From Candidatus Omnitrophota bacterium (lineage in GTDB: Bacteria > Omnitrophota > Gorgyraeia > Duberdicusellales > 4484-171): a DNA stretch of 32,000 nucleotides. The DNA is taken from NCBI GenBank assembly GCA_021735045.1, contig JAIPHU010000013.1:1-32000 (forward strand), given 5' to 3'. The position numbers and the translations under genes were made by a program. The notes under the pieces were generated by a model. The model worked only from the letters and a program-made list of their open reading frames with translations, did not search any database and was not told where the DNA came from. Shown in pieces: positions 5,513 through 27,823 of this stretch (its first letter is position 1; the number at the start of each line of letters is the position of its first letter).

Positions 5513-6265
5513 ATGCATCCGATCCTTTTTAAAATTGGCCCAATCACAATTTATACTTATGGATTTTTTATATTCCTGGGAGTATTATCCGGCTATCTTG
5601 TTTCTAAAAAAAGAGCTCAAGAAGTTGGTATAAAAAAAGAATTTTTTTCTAATATATTTTTCTGGACATTAATCATCGGCTTTCTGGGAGCAAGAATTTT
5701 TTATATTTTTGTTAACTGGCAAATTTTTATCAAAGCTCCTTTGACCATAGCTTTAAGCCGAAGTGGATTTGTTTTTTACGGAGGAGTGGTCTTTGGCCTA
5801 CTTAGCATCTTTGTTTTTGCTAAAAAATATAAAATTGAATTTTTAAAAATTACCGACATCTTTGCATTAATTATCCCCTTAGCTCACAGCCTGGGAAGAT
5901 TGGGATGCTTTTTTTATGGTTGCTGTTACGGATTGCCCACTCAATCATTTTTAGGAATTAAATTCCCTATTGAATCACCAGCTGGCAGATTAGAAACAAC
6001 GGTCATACCAACTCAATTAATTTCAGCTGGTTTTTTATTTATTTTATTTTTATTTTTGTTTACATTCAGAAATAAAATAAACAAAATTGGTAGCCTCAGC
6101 AGTTATTACCTTTTGATCTATTCTTCATTTAGATTTATTATCGAATTCTTCCGAGGTGACCCAAGAGGATTCTTCCTTATTTTTTCAACTTCTCAATGGA
6201 TATCTCTTATTCTAATTTTTTTAGCAATCATAATTTTAGGCAAAAAACGATCAAACTATAATTAA
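5513..6265 (+). CDS. lgt: Prolipoprotein diacylglyceryl transferase
   Basis: 250-aa polytopic membrane protein with the Lgt-type blocks YGFFIFLGVL, GARIFY, FYGGV, GRLGCFFYGCCYG and PTQL. Confidence 0.85.
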   Translation: MHPILFKIGPITIYTYGFFIFLGVLSGYLVSKKRAQEVGIKKEFFSNIFFWTLIIGFLGARIFYIFVNWQIFIKAPLTIALSRSGFVFYGGVVFGLLSIFVFAKKYKIEFLKITDIFALIIPLAHSLGRLGCFFYGCCYGLPTQSFLGIKFPIESPAGRLETTVIPTQLISAGFLFILFLFLFTFRNKINKIGSLSSYYLLIYSSFRFIIEFFRGDPRGFFLIFSTSQWISLILIFLAIIILGKKRSNYN

Positions 6266-9614: not shown

Positions 9615-10418
9615 ATGAAAAAAATAGGAATAGTCGGCTGTGGTACCATTGGAGAAGGTATCGCTTTATTTATTGATAAAAATTTATCTAAGCAAGCTAC
9701 TATTACGGCTTTAGCCGACAAAAAGAAAATAGCAGCAACTACTCTTAATAAAAAATTAACAAAAAAAGCTAAAATTAAAACCATAGAAAACTTGGTTAAG
9801 GAAGTAGATTTAGTAGTTGAAACCGCCTCACAAACTGCTGCTTATCAAACAATAAAACAAATTTTAATTTATAAAAAAGATATAATTATCTTAAGTGTAG
9901 GGGCTTTAATAAAAGAACCAAAGATCTTAAAAGAAGTTCAAATAAAAAATATAAATATGTATATACCTTCAGGCGCAATTTCTGGGGTAGATGGCCTAGG
10001 CGCTCTGGCTAAAGGTAATATAAAAAAATTAACTATTACAACCTCAAAACCTCCAGCTGGATTAGCTGGCGCAAAATATCTAAAAAGCAAAAATATCGAT
10101 ATAAACAAATTAAAAAAACCTACTACTATCTTTTCCGGAGGAGTTAAAGAAGCTATAAAATATTTTCCTAAAAATATCAATGTAGCTGCAACTTTACTTT
10201 TTGCTTCTAAGTTCAATAAAGTTAAGGTAGTAATTAGACTAAACCCTAAGATCAAAAGAAATATTCATAAAGTTGAAGCTGTAGCAGATGAAGCTAGGAT
10301 AAAAACAGAAGTTGAAAATGTTTCTTCAAAAATAAACCCTAAAACAAGCGCATTGACAATTCTTTCAACCCAAACATTACTTGAGAAAATTTTTTCTTCC
10401 GTAAAAATAGGAAGCTAA
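9615..10418 (+). CDS. nadX: L-aspartate dehydrogenase (NadX-like)
   Basis: 267 aa. It has an N-terminal Rossmann motif IGIVGCGTIG and PSGAISGVDGLGA plus the downstream layout of the aspartate dehydrogenase family. It sits close to nadE. Confidence 0.6.
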   Translation: MKKIGIVGCGTIGEGIALFIDKNLSKQATITALADKKKIAATTLNKKLTKKAKIKTIENLVKEVDLVVETASQTAAYQTIKQILIYKKDIIILSVGALIKEPKILKEVQIKNINMYIPSGAISGVDGLGALAKGNIKKLTITTSKPPAGLAGAKYLKSKNIDINKLKKPTTIFSGGVKEAIKYFPKNINVAATLLFASKFNKVKVVIRLNPKIKRNIHKVEAVADEARIKTEVENVSSKINPKTSALTILSTQTLLEKIFSSVKIGS

Positions 10419-10428
10419 TACAACAAAC

Positions 10429-10513
10429 AAGGTTCAAGGAAAAAGGATAAAGGGTAAAATGAAAATAATTAAAAATAAAATCTCTTTAACCTTCAACCTT
10501 GAACCTTTATCCT
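10429..10513 (+). repeat. Inverted arrays of heptad-spaced AAGG (x4) and CCTT (x4) upstream of uvrA
   Basis: AAGG occurs at 10429, 10436, 10442 and 10449. CCTT occurs at 10489, 10496, 10503 and 10510 with exact 7-nt phasing. The last CCTT ends 10 nt before the uvrA ATG, which has no SD. Confidence 0.35.
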
Positions 10514-10523
10514 TATATTAACC

Positions 10524-13313
10524 ATGTATAATTACATAACAGTAAAAGGTGCCAAAGAGCATAATCTTCAAAATATAAATGTTAAGATCCCTAAAAATAA
10601 AATAACAGTAGTTACTGGTCTTTCTGGATCAGGAAAATCATCGTTAGCATTTGACACTATTTATGCTGAAGGCCAACGCCGTTATGTAGAAAGTTTATCT
10701 AGCTATGCCAGACAATTCTTAGAACAACTTCAAAAACCTGATATAGAGCATATAGAAGGGCTTTCGCCGGCAATTGCCATTGAACAAAAAAAAGCTGGCG
10801 GCTCATTACGCTCAATCGTTGCCACCCAAACCGAAATATATGATTACCTGCGTCTTTTATACGCAAGAATCGGTAAACCCCGCTGCCCTAAATGTGGCCG
10901 GCAAATATCCAAACAAACACCCCAACAGATAATCGATCAAATATTAAAATCATCTAACGGTGATAAGATTTTTATCTTATCACCGATCATCCGCGGTAAA
11001 AAGGGAACCTATCAAGCCTTATTTGAAAAACTTCTAAAAGAAGGGTTTTCCCGAATAAGAGTTGATAAACAGATCTACAATCTGGATGAAAAAATAAAGA
11101 TCAACCGTTATAAGATTCATGATATCGAAATTTTAGTCGACAGAATAAAAATATCAAAAAAATACGAAAAAAGAATAGCTTCTTCGGTTGAAACAGCACT
11201 CAAATATTCAGAGGGTTATCTGTTAATTTATAATTTAACTAAAGACAAAGAGTTTTTATTCAACACCCATCTAAATTGTGCTTACTGTCAAATATCTTTC
11301 CCTAAACTTGAGCCCAGGCTTTTTTCTTTTAATTCTCCTTACGGAGCTTGTCCTGCTTGTAATGGACTCGGAATCCGACTTGAGTTTGACCCTGATTTAA
11401 TCATACCCAATAAAGATAAAAGCTTAGCTCAAGGAGCTATTGAACCCTTTAGAAGAGGCAGTAGAGGATCTATGATGTACTACCGTGCGCTCCTTAAGGA
11501 ATTAACCTATGAACTTGACATTTCAATGGATACTCCATTTAAAAAACTTAGCAAAAAAATACAAAAAACTATTCTTTATGGAAATAACGATATTTACGTC
11601 TGGTCAAAACCCTACGAAGGAGTTATTCCTCATCTAGAGAGAATATTTAATAAAACTGAATCTCAATATCGCAAACACGATATTGCAAACTACATGTCAA
11701 AGCTGTCTTGCCCGATTTGCAAGGGAATGCGACTAAAAAAAGAAGCTCTTTCGGTGTTTGTGGGAAAATATAATATTTGGGAAGTAGTTCAAATGAATAT
11801 CAAAACTGCTTTTAATTTTTTTTCTCAATTAAAGCTTACAAACTCAGAAGAAAAAATTGCCCACGAAATAATAAAAGAAATTAAAAAAAGACTACAATTT
11901 TGTTTAACTGTGGGCCTTTCCTATATTTGTCTTGATCGGCTCAGATCTACCCTTTCAGGAGGAGAAGCACAAAGGATTAGATTAGCCACACAAGTTGGTT
12001 CTGCATTATCAGGAGTTATCTATATTCTTGATGAACCAACTATTGGACTTCATCCCCGCGATGATAAAAATTTGATTAAAACTCTAGAAAAATTAAAAAG
12101 ATTAGGAAATACAGTAATAGTAGTAGAGCACGACAAACAAATGATTCATGCTGCTGATCATATTATTGATTTAGGTCCAGGGGCCGGAGTCGATGGAGGA
12201 AAAGTAGTTTATTCCGGAAAAATAAACGGTATCAAAAAATCTAAATCCTTAACTGGACAATATTTAAGCCAGAAAAAAGAAATTAAAACACCAAAAAAAC
12301 GAAGAGACTACAAAAATAAATCCTTCCTAGAAATAAAAGGTGCTTCTGAACATAATTTAAAAAGAATAAATATAAAATTTCCTCTAGAAAGTTTTATCTG
12401 TGTAACTGGTGTTTCTGGATCAGGAAAATCTACTTTAGTTGATGATATACTTTATCGAGCTTTAGCAAAAAATATTTATAATTCACGCCTTAAGCCGGGC
12501 AAATTTAAAAAAATCAATGGATTAAAAAATATCGATAAAGTAATTATTGTTGACCAATCACCAATTGGCAGAACACCTCGCTCCAACCCTGCTACCTATA
12601 CCGGAGTACTTACCCCAATCAGAGACCTTTTTGCTAAACTACCAGAAGCACGGGCTAGAGGCTTTAAAAAATCTCGTTTTAGTTTCAATCTTTCCGGTGG
12701 CCGCTGTCAAGCTTGCCGGGGTGAAGGAACCAAAAAAATCGAAATGCATTTCTTACCAGATATCTATATCCCTTGCGAAGTTTGTCAAGGCAAGCGCTTT
12801 AATAAACAAACCTTAGAAGTAAAATATAAAGGAAATGATATATCTAATATACTAGATATGGATATAGACCAGGCTTATCAACTCTTTCACAGTATCCCCT
12901 CAATAACTAATATCTTAAAAACCGTTAAAGATGTTGGCTTAGGTTATATAAAATTAGGTCAGCCAGCTACAACCTTATCTGGCGGAGAAGCTCAAAGAAT
13001 AAAATTAGCATCACAATTGCGCAAAAAAGCAACTGGAAAAACTCTTTATATTCTTGATGAACCTACCACTGGCTTGCACTTTGAAGATATAAAAAAACTA
13101 CTTTTTGTTTTGCAAAAACTAGTTGATAAAAAAAATACAATTTGTGTGATAGAACACAATCTAGATGTGATAAAATGTGCTGACTATATTATTGATTTAG
13201 GCCCAGAAGGTGGAGAAAACGGCGGTAAACTAGTTAGCTCTGGAACTCCAGAAAAAATATCTAAATCTAGAAAATCATATACAGGAAATTTTTTAAAAAA
13301 AATACTTAATTAA
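10524..13313 (+). CDS. uvrA: Excinuclease ABC subunit A
   Basis: 929 aa. It has two ABC ATPase modules (GLSGSGKSSLAFDT and GVSGSGKSTL, LSGGEAQRI twice) and Cys4 zinc modules. Confidence 0.97.
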   Translation: MYNYITVKGAKEHNLQNINVKIPKNKITVVTGLSGSGKSSLAFDTIYAEGQRRYVESLSSYARQFLEQLQKPDIEHIEGLSPAIAIEQKKAGGSLRSIVATQTEIYDYLRLLYARIGKPRCPKCGRQISKQTPQQIIDQILKSSNGDKIFILSPIIRGKKGTYQALFEKLLKEGFSRIRVDKQIYNLDEKIKINRYKIHDIEILVDRIKISKKYEKRIASSVETALKYSEGYLLIYNLTKDKEFLFNTHLNCAYCQISFPKLEPRLFSFNSPYGACPACNGLGIRLEFDPDLIIPNKDKSLAQGAIEPFRRGSRGSMMYYRALLKELTYELDISMDTPFKKLSKKIQKTILYGNNDIYVWSKPYEGVIPHLERIFNKTESQYRKHDIANYMSKLSCPICKGMRLKKEALSVFVGKYNIWEVVQMNIKTAFNFFSQLKLTNSEEKIAHEIIKEIKKRLQFCLTVGLSYICLDRLRSTLSGGEAQRIRLATQVGSALSGVIYILDEPTIGLHPRDDKNLIKTLEKLKRLGNTVIVVEHDKQMIHAADHIIDLGPGAGVDGGKVVYSGKINGIKKSKSLTGQYLSQKKEIKTPKKRRDYKNKSFLEIKGASEHNLKRINIKFPLESFICVTGVSGSGKSTLVDDILYRALAKNIYNSRLKPGKFKKINGLKNIDKVIIVDQSPIGRTPRSNPATYTGVLTPIRDLFAKLPEARARGFKKSRFSFNLSGGRCQACRGEGTKKIEMHFLPDIYIPCEVCQGKRFNKQTLEVKYKGNDISNILDMDIDQAYQLFHSIPSITNILKTVKDVGLGYIKLGQPATTLSGGEAQRIKLASQLRKKATGKTLYILDEPTTGLHFEDIKKLLFVLQKLVDKKNTICVIEHNLDVIKCADYIIDLGPEGGENGGKLVSSGTPEKISKSRKSYTGNFLKKILN

Positions 13314-16895: not shown

Positions 16896-17447
16896 ATGAA
16901 AATAAAAAAAATATTTATTATCTTTGTTTTATTTTCAACTTTTTTCCATATCTTATTTTTTTCTCAAATCAATCTTACGCTCCCAAACAAACAAAATCCA
17001 TACATCAATGCCTGGCCCAACCTTCTCAATAAAGAAGATTTGGTAGCAAAATCACAGATAGCTAAATTACCTAAAGAAGTAAATTTTTCGACCGCAAAAA
17101 TAAGAAAAGCATACTTTTCAAAACCTTTACCTGAATCTAGCTATGAATATATTTTTAACCAAGATTTAAACAACTATTTAAAACCTAAAAATATACTCAA
17201 AAAATACACAAAAAGCAACAACCACATCTTCTTTTTGTGGGAAAAAGAACCTCAACCGACTGCGAAAAAAAAATCGATATCTTATCGAGCTTTAGTTTCT
17301 CCTTATGGCAAGATTATATTACTTTATCCCAAAAAACTCGTTTTAGATTCTCATAAAAATATATCTAGTTATAACTATCTTAAAGAATCTGCTTATTTTT
17401 TAGAAAAAAAATTTTTCTGGACAAAATTTGACGTTTTAGTAAAATGA
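16896..17447 (+). CDS. N-terminally membrane-anchored hypothetical protein (position of TonB/TolA partner)
   Basis: 183 aa with a single N-terminal TM. I recognise no TonB C-terminal motif, so the call rests on position only. Confidence 0.5.
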   Translation: MKIKKIFIIFVLFSTFFHILFFSQINLTLPNKQNPYINAWPNLLNKEDLVAKSQIAKLPKEVNFSTAKIRKAYFSKPLPESSYEYIFNQDLNNYLKPKNILKKYTKSNNHIFFLWEKEPQPTAKKKSISYRALVSPYGKIILLYPKKLVLDSHKNISSYNYLKESAYFLEKKFFWTKFDVLVK

Positions 17448-17668
17448 TAGATGTAGACCTTTCAGTAGTTATAGGATTTCTGCTTGATAGTTCAATATTG
17501 ATTTGTTTTATTTTATATTGGCTAAATAACATCTGGTTTATCAAAAAAGAAAAAAATATAAACTTACAAAAGAAAAAATGTGAAATATGTGAAATTTTTT
17601 CTTTTGTAAATAGTCGAGATGGATATTGGAGATGTCCTAACTGTGAAAGTTTAAATAGAGGTGAGTAG
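17444..17668 (+). CDS. Small membrane protein with C-terminal zinc-ribbon
   Basis: 74 aa with an N-terminal TM followed by CEIC-x16-CPNC. The start overlaps the upstream stop as ATGA. Confidence 0.5.
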   Translation: MIDVDLSVVIGFLLDSSILICFILYWLNNIWFIKKEKNINLQKKKCEICEIFSFVNSRDGYWRCPNCESLNRGE

Positions 17669-18365: not shown

Positions 18366-19109
18366 ATGAAAAGAGTACGATTTTATATAAAACCAGAGTT
18401 GATAAAGAAAAAAATTAAAATTGTTAATAACAATACACTACACAAAATCAAAAATGTCCTTCGTTTATCAAAAAATCAAAATATTTACATTTTTGACGGA
18501 AAGGGCAAGGAGTGGAAATATAAAGTTAAAGAAATTAAAAAAAATGAGATATCAATCAATGAAATAAAAAAAACTAAAGACAAAAAAGAAAAAAAACCGT
18601 TGTTAACACTAGGATTTCCTTTAACTCAAGAAAAAAAAATAGACTTTATTTTACAAAAATCTACTGAATTAGGAGTTTCGGAATTTACTCCTTTTATTTC
18701 ATCAAGAAGTAGGGGCGCCTCGCGAGCCGCCCCTACTGATTCAAAAATAAAACGTTGGCAAAAAATAATCATTGAGGCTTGCCGACAATCAGAACGATTA
18801 TGGATTCCTAGGATAAACCAGCCGCTTGCACTTGACCAACTAATTAAAAAAAATGCTGATTTAAAGATAGTAGGGGCGCCTCGCGAGGCGCCCCTACACG
18901 AGCCACCCCTACCGTTATTGATCAATACCTATAAAACAAAAAATATTCTTTGTATTGTAGGACCAGAAGGCGGGTTTTGCGAAAAAGAGATTAATAATCT
19001 CAGACAAAATAACTGCAAACCGATAAAATTGTCCCTAAATATATTAAGAACTGAAACTGCAGCAATATTTATATCCGGCCTGATTAGATACAAATATTTA
19101 ATAAACTAA
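18366..19109 (+). CDS. rsmE: 16S rRNA (uracil1498-N3)-methyltransferase, carrying two in-frame palindromic insertions
   Basis: 247 aa with the RsmE blocks KSTELGVSEFTPFIS, RWQKIIIEACRQSER, VGPEGGF and LRTETAA. Two GC-rich palindromes are translated as RGASRAAPT and VGAPREAPLHEPPLP. Confidence 0.8.
   Translation: MKRVRFYIKPELIKKKIKIVNNNTLHKIKNVLRLSKNQNIYIFDGKGKEWKYKVKEIKKNEISINEIKKTKDKKEKKPLLTLGFPLTQEKKIDFILQKSTELGVSEFTPFISSRSRGASRAAPTDSKIKRWQKIIIEACRQSERLWIPRINQPLALDQLIKKNADLKIVGAPREAPLHEPPLPLLINTYKTKNILCIVGPEGGFCEKEINNLRQNNCKPIKLSLNILRTETAAIFISGLIRYKYLIN
18709..18736. repeat. 28-bp GTAG...CTAC palindrome (REP-like), copy 1, inside rsmE
   Basis: GTAGGGGCGCCTCG/CGAGCCGCCCCTAC, with one mismatch to a perfect palindrome. 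It is about 80% GC in a ~30% GC gene. Confidence 0.7.
18870..18912. repeat. 28-bp GTAG...CTAC palindrome, copy 2, plus an extra right-arm copy, inside rsmE
   Basis: GTAGGGGCGCCTCG/CGAGGCGCCCCTAC is a perfect palindrome at 18870-18897. It is followed by A and then CGAGCCACCCCTAC (18899-12). Confidence 0.7.
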
Positions 19110-27741: not shown

Positions 27742-27769
27742 GTAGGGGCACATTGCAATGTGCCCCTAC
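27742..27769. repeat. 28-bp GTAG...CTAC palindrome, copy 3, directly after the ligA stop
   Basis: GTAGGGGCACATTG/CAATGTGCCCCTAC is a perfect palindrome. It has the same 8-bp ends as the rsmE copies but a different, self-complementary centre. It is followed by a partial repeat, ATGCAATGTGATGTGCC. Confidence 0.7.
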
Positions 27770-27823
27770 ATGCAATGTGATGTGCCTCTTGATTTTTTAA
27801 CAATATCATCTATAATAATTGAA

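Follow-up and report, generated by a model that had tools for sequence, protein, structure and literature searches.

The closest described counterparts of the elements considered here are the repetitive extragenic palindromes (REPs) of TnpA_REP subclass 2.4, which corresponds to group 4 of the tyrosine transposases associated with REPs (RAYTs) of Bertels et al. 2017 (PMC5581495). Transposases of this subclass carry the motifs NH[IFV]H, WQ and YIxNNP, and their long REPs include 'double foot' forms with a long stem built on successive G-C pairs, a 5' GT[AG]G and a 3' C[TC]AC, whose in-frame presence within tnpA_REP genes is a hallmark of the subclass. It is common in Cyanobacteria and Bacteroidetes and scattered in other phyla, and an inverted dimer that lost its central part might give rise to the double foot (Quentin et al. 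2018, BMC Genomics 19:475, PMC6006769). Here we describe two palindromes of this kind lying in frame within rsmE, and a third beside ligA, in a 32,000-nucleotide stretch of a Candidatus Omnitrophota genome (contig JAIPHU010000013.1, positions 1 to 32,000; hereafter the window).

Intragenic, in-frame REPs bearing a GTAG tag have also been catalogued. The survey of Di Nocera, De Gregorio and Rocco (2013, BMC Genomics 14:522, PMC3733652) describes palindromes of 20-40 bp in 24 GTAG families, with the GTAG tag unpaired at one end of a 6-13 bp stem. Intragenic copies are presented there as most abundant in Opitutus terrae, sometimes two to a gene, with genes for DNA repair and RNA modification as frequent hosts, and are compared explicitly with Rickettsia palindromic elements (RPEs). 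Intergenic copies are placed immediately 3' of open reading frames (ORFs). As cited there, RPE-4 and RPE-6 are REP-sized and CGTC-tagged, and RPE-1 is a longer palindromic insertion. REP doublets forming hairpins (REPINs) consist of two inverted REPs and a spacer that together form a long hairpin; they are non-autonomous, and their mobilisation is attributed to a RAYT present in single copy (Bertels and Rainey 2011, PMC3116915).

Architecture of the palindromes in rsmE and beside ligA

We interpret the window palindromes as double-foot REPs of the TnpA_REP subclass 2.4 / RAYT group 4 type, inserted at least three times and inherited in the window, a reading to which we assign a probability of about 0.8. 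The window has a GC content of about 31% and carries all of its large ORFs on the plus strand. One of these, ORF 18366-19109 (+), encodes RsmE: it matches Pfam PF04452 (E = 2.9e-45) together with PUA_4 (PF20260) and solved RsmE structures in the PDB (E = 5e-26), and the nearest of 1117 RsmE homologues come from Candidatus Omnitrophota metagenome-assembled genomes (MAGs). Comparison loci are designated by L-numbers, of which L160-L279 are metagenome loci. The features of the window are as follows.

18366..19109, plus strand: rsmE (16S rRNA m3U1498 methyltransferase), host gene of both in-frame elements, identified from Pfam, PDB and homologues
18709..18736, no strand assigned: double-foot REP at site 1, GTAGGGGCGCCTCGCGAGCCGCCCCTAC, 13/14 pairs, encoding residues 115-124 (SRGASRAAPT) in the frame AGG GGC
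18870..18897, no strand assigned: double-foot REP at site 2, GTAGGGGCGCCTCGCGAGGCGCCCCTAC, a perfect 28-bp palindrome with 14/14 pairs, encoding residues 169-178 (VGAPREAPL(H)) in the frame GTA GGG
18898..18912, plus strand: half-REP directly 3' of site 2, an A followed by the right arm CGAGCCACCCCTAC, 15 nt or 5 codons
27742..27769, no strand assigned: intergenic double-foot REP, GTAGGGGCACATTGCAATGTGCCCCTAC, with a fully compensated upper stem, ACATTG|CAATGT
27770..27788, plus strand: partial right-arm duplications, 19 nt (ATGCAATGTG ATGTGCCTC), present in the window and not in L036

The initial annotation had reported two 28-bp, GC-rich palindromes in frame inside rsmE at the correct coordinates, and sequence, translation and the Pfam and PDB matches agree with it. 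The copy at 27742-27769 had been overlooked. Each window copy follows the pattern GTAGGGGC-N12-GCCCCTAC, and the genic 28-mer has a GC content of 22/28 (79%) as opposed to about 31% for the window. When we searched for GTAGGGG-N(8-30)-CCCCTAC, we observed three occurrences in the window and none in 100 shuffles, and a generic detector of GT[AG]G...C[TC]AC palindromes likewise returned three against 0.1 expected. All three copies begin with GTAG and end with CTAC, with 13-14 of 14 positions paired, and in each of them consecutive G-C pairs (GGGGC/GCCCC) adjoin the foot; three different contexts in the window carry one common 8-bp foot. The predicted RNA hairpins have stems of 12-14 bp and energies of -20 to -26 kcal/mol (site 1, -20.2; site 2, -26.2; ligA-proximal copy, -25.9), with z = -3.9 to -5.0; no Rfam family or tRNA matched the window palindromes.

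This double-foot architecture, together with the family match described below, bears out the earlier assignment to REP-type elements and corrects it in one respect. GTAG had been proposed to be a 5' tag with a palindrome after it, whereas it belongs to the stem of one hairpin, where it forms the foot by pairing with CTAC. The window elements fit the 20-40 bp size and the GTAG motif of the GTAG REPs of Di Nocera et al., but differ from them, by that description, in that the GTAG is mirrored and paired with CTAC; the window element could be read as a fused head-to-head dimer of GTAG REPs. The initial annotation had also singled out the combination of a GTAG REP with in-frame insertion, which already appears in Di Nocera et al. 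2013 and in Quentin et al. 2018.

Two of the three reading frames of the unit are open (VGxxxxxPL and RGxxxxxPT, the third containing TAG), and both are used in rsmE, where site 1 is translated as SRGASRAAPT and site 2 as VGAPREAPLHEPPLP. The half-REP arm that extends site 2 corresponds to the site-1 allele, of which it forms the right half, and not to the adjoining site-2 allele. In L001 (821-835) the half-REP is CGAGCCGCCCCTAC, identical to the site-1 right arm, from which the window and L036 differ by one G>A. Judged from these arms, site 2 is a full REP followed by half a REP of a second allele.

The intergenic copy at 27742-27769 begins 1 nt past the stop codon of ligA, and a gene with a SPOR domain lies downstream of it. 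It shares the 8-bp base of the genic copies and carries another self-complementary upper stem. All 28 of its 28 nucleotides are conserved in L036, where it immediately precedes TTGATTTTTT. Because a hairpin and a T-run adjoin there, the L036 copy is probably a terminator or 3' stabiliser hairpin, and by eye it has the make-up of an intrinsic terminator, resembling Rho-independent terminators as a GC-rich hairpin with TTGATTTTTT at the 3' end of ligA. The window copies do not: a terminator scan made no call at the intergenic copy, where the 19 nt of arm duplications separate hairpin and T-run, and found no T-run on the sense (+) strand of the genic copies, which rules out a sense-strand terminator role for the latter. 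The only copy that the scan marks as terminator-like is site 2 on the minus strand, where TATCTTTAAA follows the hairpin; this antisense hairpin could block antisense transcription into rsmE.

Nested distribution among orthologues

We compared the locus through an RsmE protein alignment, a DNA alignment of seven syntenic orthologues and a codon view to which the REP-free loci L280 and L281 were added. At site 1, a GC-rich palindrome is present in the window, L001, L036/L037 and L038, the L038 copy (569-596) being a perfect palindrome with the upper stem GGTTCG|CGAACC. L039 retains site 1 with a mutated left foot, and in L002 and L003 it is recognisable and decayed towards AT. L280 and L281 lack site 1 and carry an unrelated 12-codon AT-rich loop instead; in L281, which is syntenic over 19.8 kb, we found no double-foot palindrome anywhere. 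Site 2 with its half-arm is confined to the window, L001 and L036/L037, the other orthologues having a shorter AT-rich loop. The ligA-proximal copy was observed only in the window and L036 among the compared loci; in the spacer alignment, L001, L038 and L039 have no intergenic element and a ligA spacer about 130 nt longer.

On these alignments both genic copies are lineage-specific relative to RsmE orthologues, as the initial annotation had anticipated for the two peptide segments. Site 1 is old and common to all of one Omnitrophota clade, and site 2 is younger. The nested distribution in the aligned sequences indicates that insertion took place no fewer than three times, at separate depths within a single Omnitrophota clade. 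The suggestion that the palindrome family is active or recently active found no support here: all three sites are shared with L036 (about 79% DNA identity), there is no private insertion in 32 kb, and the window contains no RAYT.

The initial annotation had viewed the genic palindromes as insertions, and lineage-specific gain was indeed observed, although not a clean one. Instead of 28 or 43 nt, the net gain in length is +9 to +24 nt at site 1 and +18 nt at site 2, and alignment with solved RsmE structures opens no gap over site 1; these observations rule out a clean 28-nt insertion model. Since the net gains fall below the unit length and no gap opens over site 1, native loop sequence was lost with the genic insertions. 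All three sites show lost neighbouring DNA, the ligA spacer by the same approximately 130 nt relative to element-free relatives. A 30-bp unit, considered as an account of frame preservation, was also ruled out, as the bases flanking the unit are complementary in 28% of 257 copies compared with 25% by chance. L038 has a native GTAGG where site 2 starts, a hint that the target may have offered microhomology or a pseudo-foot.

We then mapped the inserted residues onto an AlphaFold model of RsmE built on the alignment, with a mean predicted local distance difference test score (pLDDT) of 84.6 and a predicted template modelling score of 0.84. Residues 115-124 and 169-183 are modelled as coil with block pLDDT of 73 and 60/55, the lowest in the protein, as opposed to a SPOUT core above 90. 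The low-confidence coil in the predicted fold matches the earlier expectation that the segments lie in loops, and fits the notion that the genic REPs encode tolerated surface loops.

This behaviour is also where the proposed likeness to RPEs holds. Like RPEs as described in PMC3733652, the window palindromes lie in frame in genes of an AT-rich genome and are translated as extra peptide in tolerated positions. By the same description, they are not of the RPE sequence family, differing in their foot (GTAG, not CGTC), their 28-bp unit and their host, Omnitrophota. With REPINs the window elements share the properties of non-autonomous hairpin units and long persistence in lineages; unlike REPINs, the unit is a single 28-bp palindrome without a spacer, and the 14-nt arm cannot fold alone, which places it outside that class.

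Y1/RAYT transposases and the wider family

To relate the palindromes to transposases, we took the stop-to-stop ORFs of all loci, 7850 in number, and looked among them for an HUH...YxxxNP signature and then for Pfam matches. Four of the 7850 carried the signature, all four matched Y1_Tnp (PF01797), two of them above the gathering score, and the palindrome abuts or sits inside three of the four. In L246 the HUH motif is directly followed by an in-frame REP (PNHIHGIIIL-CRGTARRAPT-FEQFG), two further copies lie upstream, and the protein scores 29.6 bits against Y1_Tnp and carries NHIH, WQ and YINNNP, the signature of subclass 2.4. L236 has the same layout (PNHIHGIVIMGAQTI-VGAHGRAPL-R) and another copy just upstream of the gene. 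L282 encodes a RAYT with an internal perfect REP, of which an identical copy lies 4.7 kb away inside the coordinates of a called gene with a weak Methylase_S (hsdS-like) Pfam match. REPs flanking or in frame in tnpA_REP-type genes were found on the contigs L246, L236, L241 and L282. An association with Y1/RAYT genes, which the initial annotation had predicted, was in this way observed for the same palindrome type at L246, L236, L282 and other contigs, reproducing there the features of subclass 2.4 double-foot REPs.

The L246 protein has 2511 homologues at E <= 1e-5, many of them annotated 'REP element-mobilizing transposase RayT'. Among the best 120 of these 2511, 61 carry RGxxxxxPT or VGxxxxxPL 10-20 residues past NH[IV]H, and none is labelled Omnitrophota. 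Approximate E. coli YafM and IS608 TnpA queries gave only weak phmmer matches (E = 0.003-0.05), and the ORFs between REP pairs in L042, L200 and L109 proved not to be Y1 transposases.

Two neighbourhoods of these genes are recorded here. L282:1936-13728 is a type I restriction-modification / defence island enclosing the subclass 2.4-type RAYT (10001-10597); its genes are hsdM, Fic, the gene with the weak Methylase_S match, SIR2_2, a DUF87/TrwB-like ATPase, the RAYT and hsdR, and the identical REP lies at 5541-5568. In L246, a second, apparently truncated HUH fragment (MPNHIHGIIIINGMAG...; 810-860) lies directly 3' of the REP-bearing RAYT gene and has no palindrome.

The same unit occurs well beyond the Omnitrophota. 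When viral contigs were scanned for GTAGGGGC-N12-GCCCCTAC and metagenome contigs for a narrower pattern, each search yielded at least 120 loci, placing the 28-bp architecture in at least 240 unrelated viral and metagenomic contigs with GC contents of 31-73%. The expectation of further copies was accordingly confirmed by the third window copy and by hundreds elsewhere. Among the matches listed there are 257 distinct copies, of which 179 are perfect 28-bp palindromes. The family consensus consists of a fixed GTAGGGGC base and a covarying upper stem, the latter existing as many discrete self-complementary alleles (AATTCATGAATT, GACCGGCCGGTC, GTATTGCAATAC, GGTTCGCGAACC and others). The flanks are unrelated, and complementarity ends exactly at GTAG/CTAC (-1/+1 pairing at the chance level given above). 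One allele, GTAGGGGCGGTTCGCGAACCGCCCCTAC, which is also that of L038 site 1, is identical in 59 unrelated contigs with GC contents of 0.37-0.72 among the metagenome matches listed. REPs normally co-diverge with their RAYT, and identity across phyla is unusual.

Other copies also lie in frame within genes, namely those for an Lhr helicase, an OGG1-type glycosylase, a DUF4870 protein and a Trans_reg_C/TPR regulator; in these the element is spanned by a Pfam domain or has Pfam domains to both sides of it. Some prophage-like loci hold up to seven copies in 12 kb (L145). IMG/VR contigs bearing Mu-like phage genes (Portal_Mu, Mu-like_Pro) frequently contain double-foot REPs, often between structural genes (L145, L069, L103 and L109), and phages may help to spread double-foot REPs.

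Proposed origin and apparent maintenance of the window copies

The mechanism that we propose starts from the 28-bp unit. GTAG forms its foot and GGGC the base of its stem, above which lies an upper stem that varies but is self-complementary; GCCC-CTAC mirrors base and foot. As single-stranded DNA the unit would fold into a hairpin. A cognate RAYT would recognise hairpin and GTAG foot, cut beside the foot and rejoin the unit elsewhere; cleavage and joining of single-stranded DNA by the RAYT are proposed by analogy, on the basis of E. coli TnpA_REP biochemistry and structure (as cited in PMC6006769). Because the unit is palindromic, its orientation at insertion would be irrelevant. Genic copies would survive only with the frame restored and with the extra 9-15 residues in a tolerant loop, and each event involved the loss of some adjacent native sequence. 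In the likely order of events, rsmE received site 1 first (whole clade) and site 2 later, and the ligA-proximal copy came last. The window copies are inherited, not new, and in this subclade their nucleotide sequence is being preserved.

Several observations weigh against this interpretation. Neither the window nor some 100 kb of related Omnitrophota loci (L001-L003 and L036-L039) contains a Y1_Tnp-like or RAYT ORF, a difference from the described subclass 2.4 system, in whose account Omnitrophota are also not among the phyla named (Cyanobacteria, Bacteroidetes, 'various phyla'). The window alleles GCCTCG|CGAGGC and ACATTG|CAATGT are absent from the viral collection and from the metagenome matches listed. 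Copy density is low, with three sites (3.5 units) in 32 kb in two contexts, all inherited, where 0.1 are expected. Simple cut-and-paste of a 28-nt unit does not predict the loss of flanking DNA at each insertion, and the strong nucleotide conservation reported below is not expected of a purely selfish, decaying relic; residence in a housekeeping gene with conservation above background is a further departure from the described system.

Could the palindromes instead have arisen in situ, as native operon hairpins or through quasi-palindrome correction or template switching? Their high conservation, the intergenic copy at an expected terminator position and the native GTAGG at the site-2 start in L038 would all suit such an origin. 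It is nevertheless largely refuted by the recurrence of the same 28-bp architecture, even of the allele GTAGGGGCGGTTCGCGAACCGCCCCTAC, in 59 unrelated contigs with unrelated flanks, and by its presence inside RAYT genes; the common 8-bp foot in three contexts of one window and the unrelated AT-rich loop of REP-free orthologues argue in the same direction, and we regard in-situ origin as very improbable. An assembly or sequencing artefact, in the form of chimeric or adapter-like palindromes in a MAG, has nothing specific in its favour beyond the fact that library artefacts can yield perfect palindromes. The elements occupy the same codons in independently assembled MAGs of different projects (JAWOBO01, JAIPHG01, JAIPHQ01, JAIPHF01 and a JGI contig), with lineage-specific substitutions and preserved reading frames, which rules this explanation out for practical purposes. 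We retain insertion of double-foot REPs of the subclass 2.4 type. What is new about the locus is the host, Omnitrophota, and the gene that carries the elements, rsmE; the kind of element is already known.

A separate matter is what has happened to the genic copies since their insertion. The REP nucleotides differ between the window and L001 or L036 at 2 of 71 positions, compared with 24.6-26.1% over the remainder of rsmE (Fisher p = 6e-7 and 2e-6), and at 1 of 23 third codon positions compared with 34.5-39.9% elsewhere in the gene (p = 4e-4 and 2e-3), the L001 and L036 comparisons not being phylogenetically independent. GC content at third codon positions (GC3) is 0.65 inside the REPs and 0.23 outside, in an AT-biased genome, and L038 shows one fully compensated pair change, C-G to T-A. 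Since the REPs are far better conserved than their host gene, show a compensated change and have decayed only in L002 and L003, these sequence comparisons point to maintenance of the genic copies, whether by hairpin selection, copy conversion or a RAYT-dependent process, rather than to neutral decay. This maintenance is the sole part of the present analysis that goes beyond the published descriptions of double-foot and intragenic GTAG REPs cited here.

One version of this idea keeps the same origin and has the copies preserved by selection or ongoing homogenisation for a present role. As RNA hairpins they might affect how the rsmE-mtaB operon mRNA decays or is translated, or they might bind a host or RAYT protein; gene conversion between copies is another candidate. 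The conservation and GC3 contrasts and the compensated pair in L038 would all be expected under this version, as would decay of site 1 in L002 and L003 alone if upkeep needs a losable factor; in addition, the left arm of window site 1 matches the site-2 allele, which hints at conversion between copies 161 bp apart. Against it stand the lack of a sense T-run and of an Rfam family for the genic copies, the dependence of the L001 and L036 comparisons, and the fact that the compensated change consists of two C:G>T:A transitions, the kind of mutation seen most often in an AT-biased genome. We consider a present role possible, yet on balance unlikely. Somewhat more speculative still is the broader proposal that in-gene REPs are actively maintained because double-foot REPs form a pan-bacterial, sequence-constrained signal policed by RAYT, conversion or selection even in coding sequence. 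It is suggested by the conservation and GC3 contrast together with the identity of one allele across contigs of 37-72% GC, and, if true, lost policing would account for the AT-decay in the sister lineages L002 and L003.

Irrespective of how the copies are kept, the locus offers a nested, datable series of three insertions in syntenic genomes. The series shows that such REPs can persist in an essential gene across genus-level divergence. In some branches they keep their high GC content and palindromic form in the face of strong AT mutation pressure, in others they decay, and adjacent DNA was lost with each insertion. The series is also useful comparative material on REPs and RAYTs, for which it is debated whether they are selfish elements, domesticated ones or a mixture.

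Two further hairpins occur in the window. An imperfect GC-rich hairpin of about 65 nt at 166-231 (CATTCGAGCGAGACCTCGCCCGCC...GGCGGGCAGCTCAATTCGAATG), 35 nt upstream of ORF 265-1488, has a predicted energy of -30.1 kcal/mol (z = -2.45), matches neither an Rfam family nor a tRNA, and does not belong to the GTAG double-foot REPs. At 17564-17609, within the small ORF 17444-17668, lies a 46-bp AT-rich near-perfect palindrome with arms of 23 nt that are 87% complementary and an RNA hairpin at z = -6.0; the ORF is conserved in synteny in L036 and L039, and its L037 counterpart has a weak A2L_zn_ribbon match.

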